This document shows, one piece after another, positions 14,801 through 20,800 of a DNA stretch of 23,198 bases. Made by a program: the position numbers. Source of the stretch: Pedosphaera sp. (lineage in GTDB: Bacteria; Verrucomicrobiota; Verrucomicrobiia; Limisphaerales; SIBH01); NCBI GenBank assembly GCA_031414955.1, contig JANOQV010000259.1, positions 1-23,198 on the forward strand, given 5' to 3'. Each line of letters starts with the position of its first letter. Position 1 is the first letter of the stretch.

Positions 14801-17800
14801 CCCAGATCGGATTACTGTGGGAGGTGGGGAAGATGCGCAGCGCCACCCAACTGCTACGGTCGATCTTCGCCTCGAAGGTCACGTCGCGCATTTTGCCGTC
14901 GGCCACGAATTCCTGCCTGGCCACGGACTGGCCGTTGACGATCAGTTCGATGGGCACGGTCTTGGTCTCACCAATGCGCGCTTTCTCGATCTGCCAGGTG
15001 AAACGATTCTTCGCCACCGTGTTGATTATGTCATCAAGCATTGCGGCGACTTTCGCCGTGGCCCGAATCGTCGTGGGTTTGTCCACCCGGAGTTCGCTGC
15101 CGTTCTCGCCCACCGCCGCGTCGTTCACCTTGAAGTCGATGAGATGGCTGTAGCCGTCGCTGACGTAAGTGCGGCCGAGGCGGACACCTTCGCACCAGTC
15201 GTCGTAGGTGAGCTTGCCGTCGAGTTTCACGTAGCTGCGCCCGAGACCGACGCGATCGCCATAGATGCACGGGAAATCTGTTTCGCCGCTGGCCCGGATG
15301 CGGAAGCCGACGTTCAAGCTGTGATACCACATGGTCAATTCTGCGGTCGGATCGGTATCGACGGTCGAAATGAAATCAACGGCCGGCACCAGCTTGCCGT
15401 CCGGCCCGGGCACGTCGTGGGTGATGTCCACGATGAACTCATTCGCGCCGATGCCGTCGTAGCGCGGCTGCTGGTAGCCCAGTGTTTCACCACGCGGCAC
15501 TTGAATGCCATTGCCGGAATGCGCCGGGCCGGTCACCGCGCCCTGCTTCTTCGCCCATTTAAGCGTGTTCAGCCCGAGCGTCGGCCAGTGATCCTTCGAG
15601 ACACCGCCGGGATACATCTGTTCCTTGAGCCGCAGCAGCACAAGGTGCCCGCTTTGGTGCGAACCGAACCCGCTCACTTCGATGTCGTAGCGCAGCAGGT
15701 AGGGATATTGCGAAACCTTGTCCACCGCGCCGCAGAAAAACTGCTTCTGAAAATCAAAACACGGCCCCCAGGTCAGGTTCGCGCCGATCTTCAAGTCTTC
15801 GCCCTTGCAGTGGCGGAACATGTCTTCGGCAAACACGCCTTCGGTCGGCTTCACGTAATGAGCGCAGCCCGCCGCGTGAATGTGATGGTCGCCCGACCAC
15901 CAGCCGAACTTCGCCGGGTCCACCCAACGGTCGGTCTTGAAGGACAGCTCCTTCGTGGCGGCGATGATGGCGTGCGAAGATTTCTTCACGATCGATTCCG
16001 GCCCGCGCGAAAGCTCCACCGTGTAACGGCCCGCCGGCAATTTCATTTTCTCGCCGTCGCCGCGATAAACCTGATCGTGGAACGCAAAGTCCGGAGCCAG
16101 GCGCTTGCTCCGCGCCGGGTAAACGCGGTTCTGCTGATCACGAATGACGAACGCCGCGATGGTCGGCTCGTTGCTGTCGTCGCGCACACGCAGCGTGACC
16201 TCCTGCGCCGGGCGCGCGGTGAACAGCACATCCACCTCGTTGCGATAGCCGATGTCCTGCGTCCCCTGCCCCACGTTGAAGGAGAACTTGCCTTCGCGCT
16301 TCCCTGCGTCGCGGCTGTAAAGCTGGATGATGCGATATTCGACCGCCAGGCCACCGAGTGTGGCGCTCATCGGCTGCGCATCGAACATGGCGAGATCTAG
16401 CCAGCGATTGGCCACGTCCTCGGCGGGAGAATTGAAGAGCCGCTGCGCATTCGGGCTTACAGCTTTTAGTGGCGCGGTCGTGCCGGATTCGTTCGCCACC
16501 TTGACCAGGAACACGCGCCAGCCCGATTCGTCCAGTTCTGGCTTGGCCTCACCCACCGCGACCTTCACCCGCATCTCGGGATTGATGCTCACGCCGAACA
16601 GCACATGCCGGTCGAGCACCGTCTGGATTTGCTGGCTGGCTTCGGCAGCGGGCAAGGCGGGCGCGTCCCTGAGTTGCTTCAACTCGGCGTCGCTCAATGG
16701 CGTGCCCAGATAAGCCAGCGCGTCGGTGACACGCGTGACTTGCGCCGCCAGCGGCTGCACTTCGACATTGGGAACGATGGGGAAGGATGCCGCAGTGGCA
16801 GCCAGCCCCAACAAGCACAGCAAGACGACAATGAGTTGGCGCATAATTCCTTTCGGGTGATTGCGGCGGATGATAGCGGGCGGCACGCAGAGGGGAAGCG
16901 CGATTCTCTGGAACGACGACACTGGAAAGTGTCGTCACCTGCCGACAAGAATGTCGGCGCTACAAACGTAACGCCGGCTTTCCAGCCGGCAGGTGGCGAG
17001 ACTTTCCAGTCTCGTGTCGGTGGCTCCTCGAAGCCGCACCCTCTCACAATTCACAGCCAACTCCCGCATTGCGCCACCGAATCCTTTCCCCCAAATTCCG
17101 CGCCCTATGTCGAGCCGGAAGCAGTATCCGTTCAATCTCATCGAGCCGAAGTGGCAGCAGTTCTGGGAGGAACAGCAGTCCTTCCGCGCGTTCAATCCCG
17201 GCGAAGTGCTGCCGGCGGAACATCCCTTCGCGCAACGTCACGGACTTGCGGGCAAGAAAGTTTCCGCCGCCGATTTGCCGCCGAAGTTCTATGTGCTCGA
17301 CATGTTCCCCTACCCTTCCGGCGCGGGACTGCACGTCGGGCATCCCGAAGGCTACACGGCCACGGACATTCTCGCGCGCTACAAGCGCGCCGCTGGTTCG
17401 CATGTGCTGCATCCGATGGGCTGGGACGCCTTCGGCCTGCCCGCCGAGCAATACGCCATCAAGACCGGCCAGCATCCGCGCGCGACGACCGAGGCGAACA
17501 TCGCGAACTTCACCAAGCAGATCAAAAGCCTCGGCTTCAGCTACGACTGGTCGCGCGAGGTGGACACCACCGATCCGAAATACTTCCGCTGGACGCAGTG
17601 GATTTTCCTGAAGCTCTACAACTCGTGGTTCAACCCGGAGACGAACAAGGCCGAGCCGATTGAGACCCTGAAGTTTCCAGGGGAGCTGGAATTGCCGGGC
17701 GCACAGGTAGGGCGCGGTGTCCTCACCGCGCCGCGCCTCGAATCGGAGGAGCGCCCCGGAACTGCCAACGCCTCACCCCGGCGCGCTGAGACAGCGACGC

Positions 17801-20800
17801 CCTACCAACTCGAAGACAAACGCCGCGCCTATCGCGACTCCAAGCGTCTCGCGTTCAGCAGCGAAGCCCCAGTGAACTGGTGTCCGGAACTCGGCACCGT
17901 GCTGGCCAACGAGGAAGTCATCGACGGCAAGAGCGAAGTGGGCGGCTTCCCCGTGGTGCGCCGGCCCATGCGCCAATGGATGCTCCGCATCACCGCCTAC
18001 GCCGAGAAACTGCTCGACGATCTCAACACGATCGACTGGAGCGACTCGCTCAAGGAGATGCAGCGGAACTGGATTGGGAAGAGCGAAGGGGCGGAGGTGG
18101 ATTTTCAGATTGGTGGCCGTGCGGACAAGATTCGCGTTTTCACGACGCGCCCCGATACGCTGTTCGGTGCGACCTACATGGTGTTGTCGCCGGAGCACAA
18201 GTTGGTCGCGGAAATCACGACGGCCGAGCAGCGCGAAGCCGTGAAGCAGTATCAGCAGTTCGCCGCCGGCAAGAGCGATCTCGAACGCACGGAACTCGCG
18301 AAGGAGAAGACCGGTGTCTTCACCGGTTCGTATGCCATCAATCCGGTGAACGGGGAGAAGATGCCCATCTGGATAGCTGACTACGTGCTCGCGAGCTACG
18401 GCACAGGTGCGATCATGGCAGTTCCATCTCATGATGCGCGCGACATGGAGTTCGCGCTCAAGTTCGACATCACAACTCAGAACGTGGTGCTGCCGCCAGA
18501 CGCTTGGTTGCGCGAGCGAGTGAGTTCCACTTTTGCAGATAAGACGATTGAAGAAATCCGCGACGTTTACAAAACCACGAATGCCTACTTCGGACAGGAA
18601 GCATTCTGTGAAACTGGAACTGCGATCAATTCAGCCAATCCTGAAATCTCCCTCAACGGCCTCCCTACCGCCGAAGCCAAAGCGAAAATCACCGCCTGGC
18701 TCGAAGCGAAGAGCCTCGGCAAGAAGACCATCAACTACAAGCTGCGCGACTGGCTCTTCAGCCGGCAGCGTTACTGGGGCGAGCCGTTCCCCATCGTGTG
18801 GAAGAAGGACGCGAATGGGAACGCGTATCACGAGGCGCTGCCGGAGAGCGCGCTGCCGTTGCTGCCGCCCGCGCTGGACGATTACAAGCCCACGCCCGAC
18901 GGCCAACCGCCGCTCGCCCGCGCGCAGGACTGGGTGAACCGGCCCGACGGCTCCGTGCGCGAAACGAACACCATGCCGCAGTGGGCGGGCAGTTGCTGGT
19001 ATTACCTGCGCTATCTCGATGCGGGGAATGATGGCACCTTTTGTTCCGCCGAGGCTGAGGAGTATTGGATGGGCGCGCCAAGCGTCGCGCAACTCGGTTT
19101 CCACGAGTGGCAGACGCGGCTCAAGGCGCTTTATGCCTTCGCTCTTAACAATCCGGAGAACCGGAAGGATTTCGTCAGCTACGACGTGGTCAGCCCGGCG
19201 GAAGCGGATTTTCTCGCCGGGAAAACAGGGCTGCATCTCGCAGGATACCGGCGGATGATCGACAACTTTGCCATCCGTCACGTCATGAACCAGCATGGTG
19301 ATGCGGAGAAGGAGCGCCAGCGCGGGCTGCTCCCAGTCAGCTTTGATGACCTGCTCCAGATTCCAGCCATCATCCACTCGGCGGATGAAGTGCGCTCCGG
19401 CGGCAAGACCGCAACGAACCTGGATCTGATCCTCTACACAAAGCGCGTTAATGGATGGCTGTACTATTTCGAAGAAGTACGGACGGCGAATGATTTGTTG
19501 GCGGCCAAGACGTTGTACAAAAAACCGGCGACGGCGAGTCATGCCGGTGAAGGCCTTGCTCAAACGCCCGAAGCGCTCCGTCGCACTGGGGAGAATCTAG
19601 CGAACACAGGGCCGCGTGGCAAGGTCACGCCCGGCGTGGACCTCTACGTTGGCGGCACCGAGCACGCCGTGCTGCACCTGCTCTACGCGCGCTTCTGGCA
19701 CAAGGTGCTGTTCGACCTCGGCTATGTCTCCACGCCCGAGCCGTTCTTCAAGCTCGTGAACCAGGGACTCATCCTCGGCGAGGACGGCCAGAAGATGTCC
19801 AAGTCGCGCGGCAACACGGTCAACCCCGACGACATCCTCGTGGAATTCGGCGCGGATGCCTTCCGCCTTTACGAAATGTTCATGGGGCCGCTGGAGATGG
19901 TGAAGCCGTGGAACACGAAGGGCGTGGAAGGCGTGTATCGTTTCCTCGGCCGCGTCTGGCGTTTGTTCGTCGATGAAGCGAGCGAGACGGAGTTCGAGCA
20001 GACGCAGACCGCCACCGATCCGGCGCAGCAGCGCGAGTTGCTGAAGTTGATCAAGCTCCACGCCGGCATCAAGGACGCCGAGGCGACGAAGGAACAGCTC
20101 AAGGCACTGCACGCCTGCATCAAGAAGGTGACGGAAGATCTCGACGGCCTGCGCTTCAACACCGCCATCTCGGCCATGATGGTCTTCGCCAACGACGCCA
20201 TGAACTGGGAAACGAAGCCGGTCTCCGTGCTGCGCGAGTTCCTGATTCTGCTCCAGCCTTTCGCCCCGCACATCGCGGAGGAGTTGTGGGAGAAATTGTC
20301 CAAAGTCCAAAGTACAAAGTCCAAAGTCACGGACGACGGTGCGGCGACCTTGGACCTTGGACTTTGGACTTTGGACTTGTCCTACCAGCCCTGGCCGAAG
20401 CATGACCCCGCCCTGCTCGTCGAAGACACGCTGGAGATTCCCGTGCAGGTGAACGGCAAGCTCCGCGACGTAATCCGCGTGGCGGCGACGGCAACGCAGC
20501 CGGAGATCGAAGCCCTCGCGCTCGCTTCGGAGAAGGCGCAGCAGTTCATGGGCGGCAAGGCGGTGAAGAAAATCATCGTGGTACCCAAGAAGCTGGTGAA
20601 CATCGTGGTGACCTGACGCCGCGCGCGCCTGGGCTTCGAGCGGATGGAAAAGAGGAAACGGGCCGAGCCCGTTTCCTCGTATCATTCCTGACTGACCACC
20701 AAGGAAGGACGGGCAGTCACCCGTTCCAAGGCCCTCGCCCCGTCACCGCCCGACTATGGATGCGCCGATCGGTAGAAGGCCGAATTGGTCGCCGGATTGG

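Follow-up and report, generated by a model that had tools for sequence, protein, structure and literature searches.

The only leucyl-tRNA synthetase (LeuRS) of a Pedosphaera sp. genome (GCA_031414955.1) carries, within its reading frame, a cassette in which a toxin-family RNase domain, PBECR3, is followed directly by a predicted structured RNA and its promoter on the opposite strand. The window analysed here is the whole of contig JANOQV010000259.1 from position 1 to 23,198 (23,198 nucleotides). We propose, with moderate confidence, that the cassette is an RNase and RNA antitoxin of phage origin that would follow the logic of type III toxin-antitoxin (TA) systems while nested in an essential gene, kept there by addiction and possibly acting as a trigger of abortive infection. 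The RNase domain had been recognised in a first-pass annotation of this DNA; the antisense RNA and its promoter are a second component beyond that annotation, and they change the mechanism.

The LeuRS gene and its insertion site

The leuS gene (17107..20616, +) encodes 1169 amino acids from an ATG at 17107, with open frame extending upstream as far as a GTG at 16993. The protein scores 922.7 bits against NCBIfam leuS_bact (cut-off 548.4) and has both signatures, HVGH and KMSKS, together with the editing and anticodon domains expected of a bacterial LeuRS. As first annotated, it is the sole LeuRS: tblastn of the genome (95.9% complete) finds no second one, the best other long match having 27% identity and an E value of 4e-10. 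Alignment to the T. thermophilus LeuRS stops at M655/M530 and restarts at V844/V532, which places the in-frame cassette at residues 656–842 (19072..19632, +), where the T. thermophilus enzyme has a single residue between M530 and V532. The insert is thus where it had been reported, and at 187 residues it is longer than the earlier estimate of about 170 (660–830). PBECR3 is the only domain that Pfam recognises in it, with no Hint, transposase or DNA endonuclease domain; no terminal or bounding repeats were found around it, and the cassette is single-copy in the genome. PADLOC returned no match, and PHROGs returned two weak matches of unknown function.

Two further inserts, separate from the cassette, are translated in frame in this leuS: a GTAG-type REP-like inverted repeat (17706..17806, residues about 200–233) and a heptamer-repeat inverted element (20287..20387, residues about 1061–1094). 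The REP-like repeat shows that leuS tolerates insertions that keep the frame. In 73 leuS alleles without PBECR3, the frame reads through the cassette site with 1–51 residues, often REP-like peptides, and these alleles remove the concern that absences of the domain are assembly gaps. The loop at this site precedes a Rossmann strand and is therefore expected on the edge of the sheet, where it should lie away from the active site; the full-length LeuRS model (AF2, 11 rows; pLDDT 43, pTM 0.30, with the insert alone reaching 67–87) gives no geometry relative to the tRNA.

The site invites the reading that the cassette is a harmless passenger in a permissive loop, comparable to the REP peptides, with both RNase and RNA idle in LeuRS. 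The peptides of the domain-free alleles and the two other palindromes of this gene speak for it, as do the REPs known to lie within genes of O. terrae and within tRNA synthetase genes (PMC3733652) and the presence of the same cassette in a GT2 enzyme. We nevertheless assign this reading a small probability on account of the selection acting on the domain and on the RNA, which is described below.

Fold, active-site residues and selection of the PBECR3 domain

PBECR3 (PF18812) is matched at residues 698–808 (19198..19530, +), as in the first-pass annotation, with 65.2 bits against a curated cut-off of 30 and over positions 6–110 of the 115 in the model. An AF2 model of the insert built from a 63-row alignment (pLDDT 90.8, pTM 0.80) outlines a folded unit of about 145 residues (about 665–807), which is PBECR3 with an extra N-terminal helix and strand; the earlier statement that the fold depends on the Pfam match is thereby superseded. 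The modelled topology, a helix followed by a sheet of four to five strands, is that of the BECR fold of BrnT, RelE and colicin D, with a moderate best Z score. In a structural search of 48,161 chains, the 13 best matches (VIA rows) are all TA, CDI or colicin toxins, headed by BrnT (Z 6.3, rmsd 3.0, 76 aligned); the matches to BrnT, CdiA-CT of NC101 and Kp342, RelE and colicin D (PDB 3u97, 5i4q, 6cp9, 2kc8 and 5znm) have Z of 4.2–6.3, and all Z scores are below 8, a range that according to the tool may reflect merely a common arrangement. With Foldseek, the PDB yielded nothing at E ≤ 0.001.

The endoribonuclease activity of PBECR domains is itself a prediction, and a His and a Thr have been proposed as their active site (Iyer et al. 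2017, PMC5512222). The LeuRS insert has this proposed configuration: the putative catalytic residues His725 and His730 (19279..19296, +) lie in the helix (720–730) at the N terminus of the BECR core, and Thr802 (19510..19512, +), the putative catalytic alcohol residue, sits in the last strand (797–807). Each of the 26 LeuRS-fused domains, a set with some near-duplicates, retains all three; among 167 other PBECR3 domains, His725 is kept in 160, His730 in 167 and Thr802, as Thr or Ser, in 162. The His pair noted earlier as conserved is accordingly borne out and joined by Thr802, and the accompanying worry that the fold might be inert is weakened because the proposed catalytic His and Thr are present.

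LeuRS-fused inserts are only 21–52% identical to that of this genome. The description of the insert as fast-evolving therefore holds, yet the domain is under purifying selection, with dN/dS of 0.15–0.23 in nine same-type pairs. This ratio of about 0.2, and the invariance of His, His and Thr at such low identity in the LeuRS-fused lineage, argue against an idle passenger.

A predicted structured RNA and promoter on the opposite strand

The 3′ "linker" of the insert is a covarying three-way-junction RNA (19528–19584). The predicted small RNA of about 65–70 nt (19519..19587, −, ends inferred) comprises an outer stem, P1 (19584–19578 with 19534–19528), a 3-bp hairpin with a UUCGG loop (19575–19565), a stem, P2, with internal loop and hairpin P3 (19561–19536), and a U6 tract (19524–19519), all on the minus strand; this tract, which falls on Lys codons, is strong in just 19 of 30 elements. 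P1 was recovered unaided by RNAalifold in 19 LeuRS alleles and again in 15 non-LeuRS loci, the latter with compensatory changes at 6/6 pairs. Covariation in an unfitted alignment is 0.340 versus 0.111 when shuffled, a value reached by 0/500 shuffles, and slid controls give 0.04–0.14; the element of this contig alone folds no better than shuffles (z −0.56). Among 48 elements, all three frames are seen and a stop codon lies before or inside the RNA in 14, and the constraint therefore acts on the nucleic acid. Folding favours the antisense strand in 45 of the 48, versus 171 of 376 control windows. The letters of the hairpin loop and internal loop are conserved from Verrucomicrobia to unrelated phages, and the variable part is a closed hairpin, with no variable guide segment seen. 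Rfam yields no family at gathering score, the best on the element being sX11 (13.1 bits vs 70, E 1.8).

Several readings of this RNA were discarded. Placement on the mRNA strand was dropped after the strand-folding and antisense promoter results. A pseudoknot between internal loop and hairpin loop was unsupported by eye, C variants breaking the pairing, and tRNA T-loop mimicry was set aside, as a 5-nt loop on a 3-bp stem agrees better with the covariation. A G·U/A·C count on a model-fitted alignment was discarded with P2 out of register; a parser count for the plus strand of 47 elements stands at 36 A·C and 16 G·U, junction artefacts included.

A predicted σ70-like promoter faces the RNA (19594..19622, −), with a −35 box TTGCCA (19622–19617), a 17-nt spacer and a −10 box TAGATT (19599–19594). 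Promoter-like boxes are conserved at a fixed distance from the RNA, and in 20 of 23 leuS alleles and in 23 of 30 other loci the promoter score is higher than in all control windows of the same locus, in a test that used approximate weights, a search window picked after seeing the data and kin that are not independent; in this stretch alone the match is no more than chance would give (1 found, 0.9 expected). The −35 box is under synonymous-site constraint in the LeuRS-fused lineage: in the tail, Val-Lys/Asn uses GTCAA (antisense TTGAC) in 16/16 cases versus 75/228 elsewhere in LeuRS. The small RNA is very probably transcribed. The one expression run examined (X1) gave only short stretches of leuS from relatives, none of them on the insert, and speaks neither for nor against transcription. 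The persistence of this constraint and of compensatory stem changes within the LeuRS-fused lineage also tells against the passenger reading.

The convergent promoter raises the question of whether the antisense RNA instead pairs with the mRNA, as in type I TA systems, tuning the amount of the PBECR3 protein through kissing loops followed by duplex cleavage, without binding it. The RNA is fully complementary to the message, it overlaps the 3′ UTR in many phage loci, and its UUCGG loop would fit the YUNR U-turn motif of antisense RNAs. The sole LeuRS must, however, be translated; silencing of the leuS message therefore cannot be the antidote here, nor can lowering it neutralise a fused RNase. 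Pairing, moreover, needs no sequence conservation, yet the loop letters are kept across distant hosts. We consider this type of control improbable, and prefer neutralisation of the domain by the RNA.

Linkage of the RNA to the RNase domain

Phage and polyvalent genes have the same RNA element behind their PBECR3, where it occurs in each of the three frames and also past stop codons. A pattern for the RNA alone has 65 viral matches, 23 with PBECR3 directly upstream and 42 without it by the HMM used here. In the reverse direction, 22 non-LeuRS loci were selected by protein, and a regular expression picked up the motif in 14 of them; three Helicobacter phage loci, L026, L145 or L146 gave no recognisable motif. 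One locus (L090) holds tandem units, each with its own RNA, and three (L058, L076 and L077) hold tandem RNA copies. In leuS, the RNA is kept without the RNase in two alleles (G207 and G136) and no fusion (0/20) lacks the RNA; 19 of the 20 built the RNA model and match by construction, and the 2-to-0 asymmetry is a small number that the easier deletion of the larger domain would also favour. Matches in G304 (L219) and G131 (L208) look like real elements without PBECR3, and matches of 24–31 bits in G007, G044, G083 and G194, and one in G131, look like chance.

So tight a one-to-one linkage would also suit an RNA that is a cofactor, guide or processed substrate of the RNase in a ribonucleoprotein effector, or a single-stranded DNA structure that marks the cassette for shuffling among polyvalent genes. 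Conserved single-stranded letters and recurrence of the cassette in unrelated host proteins fit these readings. A guide would call for a variable segment, and the variable part is the closed hairpin; the promoter facing the element argues for RNA rather than DNA, the insert is without terminal repeats, and the RNA-only alleles argue that the RNA is harmless by itself. We give these readings little weight next to an RNA antitoxin.

Distribution, capture and exchange of the cassette

PF18812 is matched in 24 of 401 genomes of the order, and 20 of the 26 matches are LeuRS fusions at the same site. The fusion occurs in 20/401 genomes from 13 families and is absent from about 95%; the distribution is patchy, as first described, and wider than then supposed. 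Further LeuRS fusions occur in records titled Verrucomicrobiales and Chthoniobacterales, and a cassette with the same tail lies inside a glycosyltransferase (the GT2 enzyme, P0039). The annotated closest relatives of the domain are mostly portal, DarA, LPD, ART or RadC fusions, and a search with the single protein found no viral relative. The analysis supports the view, already put forward in the first-pass annotation, of a toxin-family (BECR) domain within an essential synthetase, and points to phage or polyvalent proteins as its origin.

Cassettes have been exchanged between leuS backbones, as shown computationally. Between this genome and G227, of the same genus, the flanks are 97–98% identical (dS 0.2) and the domains 41% identical (dS 1.0), and on the LeuRS tree a single clade is rejected at p 7e-4 for insert type A and at p 1e-5 for type C, and is not rejected for type B (p 0.33). 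Free trees of the domain give three LeuRS groups; a tree that holds the LeuRS inserts together is 37 log-units better and is not rejected (p 0.85), in a test with 73 of 193 domains. Several independent captures were rejected on these grounds, a single capture followed by exchange being the more economical account.

The first-pass annotation had offered tRNA-Leu recognition or quality control, such as the cutting of damaged or mischarged tRNA, as a function of the synthetase. Several of the closest folds are tRNases, some of which use host translation factors (PMC9086364), the domain is under purifying selection, and the LeuRS inserts may go back to one origin, which the trees do not reject. 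A role in synthetase function is difficult to reconcile with a domain confined to so few genomes, lost or swapped among close relatives with near-identical backbones, placed in a REP-filled loop that should lie away from the active site, and found also in a glycosyltransferase. Domain losses that leave the RNA alone, and the antisense RNA itself, would go unexplained. We regard this function as unlikely, very much so, and retain the toxin-antitoxin reading. The other option of that annotation, a conflict device, may hold.

Proposed mechanism

The two-part cassette would derive from phage or polyvalent-protein genes, with a BECR-fold PBECR3 RNase domain encoded in sense and, immediately after it in antisense, a promoter and a three-way-junction RNA of about 65 nt. 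It would have entered LeuRS at a surface loop that tolerates insertions, and could then be spread or replaced through homologous recombination between the conserved flanks. By analogy with the RNA antitoxins of type III and AbiF systems, we lean towards a model in which the RNA binds the PBECR3 domain and holds the RNase inactive. In this proposal, the cassette would persist because the RNA cannot be lost ahead of the RNase. A possible benefit, put forward tentatively, is that phage shut-off of host transcription would let the RNA decay while the abundant, stable synthetase stays, and the freed RNase would cut tRNA or mRNA and abort the infection. It is conceivable, though doubtful, that PBECR3 RNases in general form an undescribed RNA-antitoxin class, with a three-way-junction RNA antisense to their own coding tail, and that the Limisphaerales LeuRS unit is an anti-phage trip-wire by which tRNA is destroyed once transcription is lost, its allelic cassettes being swapped like the tips of polymorphic toxins.

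The proposal offers a testable answer to how PBECR RNases spare their own producer cell, and a small RNA family without Rfam match that trails PBECR3 in bacteria as well as phages. A TA unit would here lie wholly inside an essential reading frame, one DNA stretch serving as protein linker, RNA gene and promoter, and its parts are small (a 145-residue domain and a 65-nt RNA). If the defence reading is true, an aminoacyl-tRNA synthetase doubles as an immune effector. No description of a LeuRS-PBECR3 fusion was found in the literature searched; a 2026 preprint on BECR classification (10.64898/2026.08.28.747851, with four mentions of PBECR) could bear on novelty and catalytic residues.

Comparison with known systems

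The LeuRS domain shares its family, and the His and Thr/Ser configuration, with the PBECR3 domains found in polyvalent, portal and MuF proteins of phages (PF18812; Iyer et al. 2017, PMC5512222); the host protein here differs in being an essential housekeeping enzyme. The passages of that study considered here mention neither synthetase fusions nor an associated RNA and name no antidote for PBECR RNases. BrnT, CdiA-CT, RelE and colicin D, the best structural matches, are 5–10% identical to the insert. Their antidotes are protein antitoxins or immunity proteins, and the LeuRS insert encodes none of these. The intragenic REPs/RPEs of synthetases (Di Nocera et al. 2013, PMC3733652) show the same permissive-loop behaviour, whereas the cassette is single-copy, without terminal repeats or a DNA-cutting enzyme, and has a selected folded domain, a promoter and an RNA.

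The LeuRS unit would resemble type I TA systems in its predicted small RNA from a putative convergent promoter at the 3′ end of the toxin, and differs in its enzyme-domain toxin, its essential message and an RNA conserved in sequence and structure across distant hosts. Type I systems have convergent cis-antisense RNAs, as in RatA/txpA, and small membrane peptides as toxins. In type III systems (ToxIN, CptIN and TenpIN) the antitoxin is a tandem-repeat array co-transcribed upstream of the toxin, and the ToxN-like fold differs from BECR. The LeuRS unit has instead one RNA copy that lies downstream, and both the strand bias and the promoter evidence point to the opposite strand; like the type III antitoxins, this ncRNA is structured, encoded in cis and linked with its toxin gene, as covariation and linkage indicate. 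AbiF is a HEPN protein, whereas the LeuRS insert has an α/β BECR fold and no match to a HEPN or Abi domain in Pfam or PADLOC. With type III TA and AbiF/AbiFr (PMC12737573; PMC12373285) the unit shares an RNase and a cis-encoded structured ncRNA on phages or mobile elements, and neutralisation of protein by RNA is the proposed likeness; it differs from both in that the whole unit is translated within another protein.

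The PBECR3 domain of the leucyl-tRNA synthetase

The leuS frame (17107–20616, forward strand) codes for a bacterial leucyl-tRNA synthetase (LeuRS) of 1169 aa that carries a PBECR3 domain (PF18812) at residues 698–808, with a Pfam score of 65.2 bits against a cut-off of 30. The uninterrupted frame, this score and a gap in the alignment with Thermus thermophilus LeuRS confirm the fusion proposed in the first-pass annotation, as well as the placement of the insert between LeuRS blocks; its extent, put there at about residues 660–830, is revised to residues 656–842, because the alignment breaks off at M655/M530 and restarts at V844/V532. 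No second LeuRS was found in the genome, which is 95.9% complete, in agreement with the claim that this is the only one. Two in-frame palindromic repeats also lie within leuS, at 17706–17806 and 20287–20387, each with ~20–55 short blastn matches in the genome; an earlier study already describes REPs inside genes of Verrucomicrobia (PMC3733652). An inverted repeat with 48-bp arms at 16916–17015, which lies between leuS and a divergently oriented gene for a CehA/McbA-type hydrolase, has ~30–40 such matches and represents a third REP-like family at leuS.

The AlphaFold2 model of the insert domain, built with 63 aligned relatives, has a pLDDT of 90.8 and a pTM of 0.80. Foldseek returned no match for it at E ≤ 0.001. 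In a structural search of 48,161 representative chains, the best matches were BrnT (Z = 6.3), a Salmonella toxin–antitoxin (TA) toxin (5.9) and CdiA-CT NC101 (5.7), followed by RelE and colicin D (4.5); the top 13 rows contain nothing but TA, CDI and colicin toxins, at moderate Z scores. The proposed catalytic residues (Iyer et al. 2017) His725, His730 and Thr802 are present in 26 of 26 LeuRS-fused copies, some of them near-duplicates, and their positions are retained in 160, 167 and 162, respectively, of 167 other PBECR3 domains, while the fused inserts share 21–52% identity with the insert studied here. The dN/dS ratio of the domain is 0.15–0.23 in nine same-type pairs and 0.44–0.54 in three cross-type pairs; it reaches 1.08 in a single pair of near-identical sequences that differ by very few changes, and saturation leaves it undefined in two further pairs. 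That the cassette is an inert passenger, a reading at odds with the low same-type ratios and the retained residues, appears improbable.

At E ≤ 0.001, the insert has 1,818 relatives among 50%-identity representatives. The 69 that were scanned comprise two LeuRS, one GT2 glycosyltransferase and otherwise portal, polyvalent-type or unannotated proteins. The glycosyltransferase (P0039), known here from its protein sequence, contains a whole PBECR3 domain and an RNA-type tail in frame, an example indicating that the cassette also enters enzymes other than synthetases. A role of the domain in tRNA quality control, to which this second host lends no support, is very unlikely.

A predicted structured RNA behind the domain

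As protein, the tail that follows the domain is a low-confidence linker (pLDDT 62–72); it is as nucleic acid that it is conserved. Inspection at the codon level revealed paired segments with compensatory changes, and RNAalifold recovered the outer stem, P1, unaided from 19 LeuRS alleles and also from 15 non-LeuRS loci. In an unfitted alignment, 83.2% is paired and covariation is 0.340, as compared with 0.111 in shuffled alignments (0 of 500 shuffles as high) and 0.04–0.14 in slid controls. Model-fitted alignments give 0.344 (61 rows) and 0.392 (32 non-LeuRS rows), values that are biased towards the model and include some chance rows. The consensus is a three-way junction in which P1 (6–7 bp) meets a hairpin of 3 bp and a stem of 4 bp that bears an internal loop and a variable hairpin. 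The element (~19519–19587, reverse strand) has no match in Rfam and occurs once in this genome.

Among 22 non-LeuRS loci selected by protein, a regular expression detected the motif a short way downstream of the domain in 14, and two more (L192, L149) were added by eye; it was seen neither in L026, L145 and L146 nor in three loci of Helicobacter phages. A stop codon precedes or interrupts the RNA in 14 of 48 elements, and all three frames are represented. Searched for alone, the RNA pattern gave 65 viral matches, 23 of them (17 of 43 distinct cores) with PBECR3 directly upstream and four with PBECR3 on the far side.

One viral locus (L090:100–800) contains a PBECR3 ORF twice in tandem, with a separate RNA element behind each copy, and in L058, L076 and L077 (about 690–840) two elements lie 81 nt apart within one long phage ORF. 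An orphan RNA at L208:1500–1554 (G131:C23), nearly identical to that of locus L002, lacks both an upstream PBECR3 and a promoter score. The RNA-like element at L219:1500–1583 (G304:C6; 30.8 bits) follows an unrelated ORF of ~230 aa without a PBECR3 match and may mark another partner protein. In eight viral loci (L036, L044, L050, L052, L078, L079, L082, L083), the pattern recurs just past a stop codon; the ORF ahead of it, without a Pfam match in the two loci scanned, may code for a divergent partner of this RNA.

Strand and promoter-like boxes

Folding is better on the antisense strand in 45 of 48 elements, as compared with 171 of 376 control windows. The sole promoter-like site between 16850 and 20800 is likewise antisense (19622 to 19594), at chance level when taken alone, and transcription from it would begin at the base of P1. 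In homologues, boxes at this position score higher than any control window of the same locus in 20 of 23 leuS alleles, as they do in 23 of 30 loci of other kinds; their means are 9.0 and 8.9, those of the controls 0.3 and 0.4. These scores rest on approximate weights, a search window picked after the fact and kin that are not independent. Across a 30-row alignment, conservation of the TTG in the −35 box is 90% or higher. Codon choice is similarly constrained: Val-Lys/Asn in the tail is always spelled GTCAA (16 of 16 cases, as compared with 75 of 228 elsewhere), and the Thr encoded in the hairpin uses ACG in 21 of 22 (as compared with 484 of 1229). In 19 of 30 elements P1 is followed by a U-rich tract, a signal confounded by the Lys codons there.

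Distribution, exchange and loss

Of 401 genomes from the order, 24 have PF18812; among its 26 matches, 20 are fusions to LeuRS, all at this site and spread over 13 families. In a 401-genome sample of the phylum, none of the 11 other carriers has LeuRS motifs near the domain. Sequence-pattern matches add further fusions from records titled Verrucomicrobiales and Chthoniobacterales. The 73 domain-free alleles have 1–51 residues at the site, often REP-like.

Some leuS loci are irregular. In L160 (G182:C11) and L161 (G057:C57), LeuRS is part of open frames 2186 and 1662 aa long, with the site lacking a large insert. Stops or frameshifts break the frame near the site in L102 (G398:C9), L190 (G124:C39) and L191 (G025:C55), leaving pieces of 516, 109 and 689 aa, for which assembly errors or split genes are candidates. 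Besides its fused LeuRS, genome G286 has a more distantly related one that lacks the cassette (L112, G286:C398; a 60% identical query match); it may stem from contamination or be a true paralogue.

Three groups, A, B and C, can be told apart among the fused domains, and the data do not reject that they arose once (p = 0.85). On the LeuRS-core tree the types are dispersed, and well-supported clades combine A, B and empty alleles; a test with 24 insert-bearing rows rejects monophyly of A (p = 7e-4) and of C (p = 1e-5) and does not reject that of B (p = 0.33). Between this leuS and that of G227, from the same genus, the flanks are 97–98% identical (dS 0.2), whereas the domain is 41% identical (dS 1.0). 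We infer that cassettes are replaced through recombination in the conserved flanks; neither a mobilizing enzyme nor terminal repeats were found in the insert.

The RNA model, run on 390 of the 401 genomes, is matched in 20 of 20 fusions, 19 of which built it; the fusion of G286 and three outside fusions have the RNA though they were not used in model building. In the leuS alleles of G207 and G136, which descend from different subtypes, the RNase is gone, and the RNA with its promoter-like boxes directly follows the conserved Trp-Met-Gly. No RNase-only allele was seen among the 20 fusions. Judged from these sequences, loss of the RNase with retention of the RNA would be the order expected of a toxin and its antidote, in small numbers. 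An RNA that serves the RNase as a cofactor, or a structure that acts as a DNA signal, would fit the tight linkage of element and domain; these RNA-only alleles sit awkwardly with the former and the promoter-like boxes with the latter, and we regard either as rather improbable.

Proposed mechanism and comparison with known systems

The most likely mechanism, to which we give about even chances, is one in which the RNA binds the PBECR3 RNase and silences it. Type I-like pairing of the antisense RNA would fit its strand and is unlikely; the protein is favored as the target because silencing is not an option for the only leuS message, and still the RNase residues, the RNA and the promoter-like boxes are all kept. 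Under silencing of the RNase by the RNA, the cassette would persist through addiction, with abortive infection once the host is shut off as a possible benefit.

In literature searches with little coverage of subscription journals, no title or opening of an abstract pointed to a BECR RNase with a downstream noncoding RNA antitoxin, and nothing relevant on BECR linked to LeuRS or another synthetase was among the matches listed (the best 25 of 2,270 and the best 12 of 393). The accessible part of Gerdes 2025 mentions neither a BECR–RNA pairing nor a LeuRS fusion. New, as far as these searches show, is the combination of a BECR RNase and a predicted antisense-encoded structured RNA, set within the reading frame of an essential synthetase and swapped among its alleles. 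In type III and AbiF systems, as described in PMC12737573 and PMC12373285, an RNA silences an RNase by binding it; the cassette would work alike but is a member of neither family.
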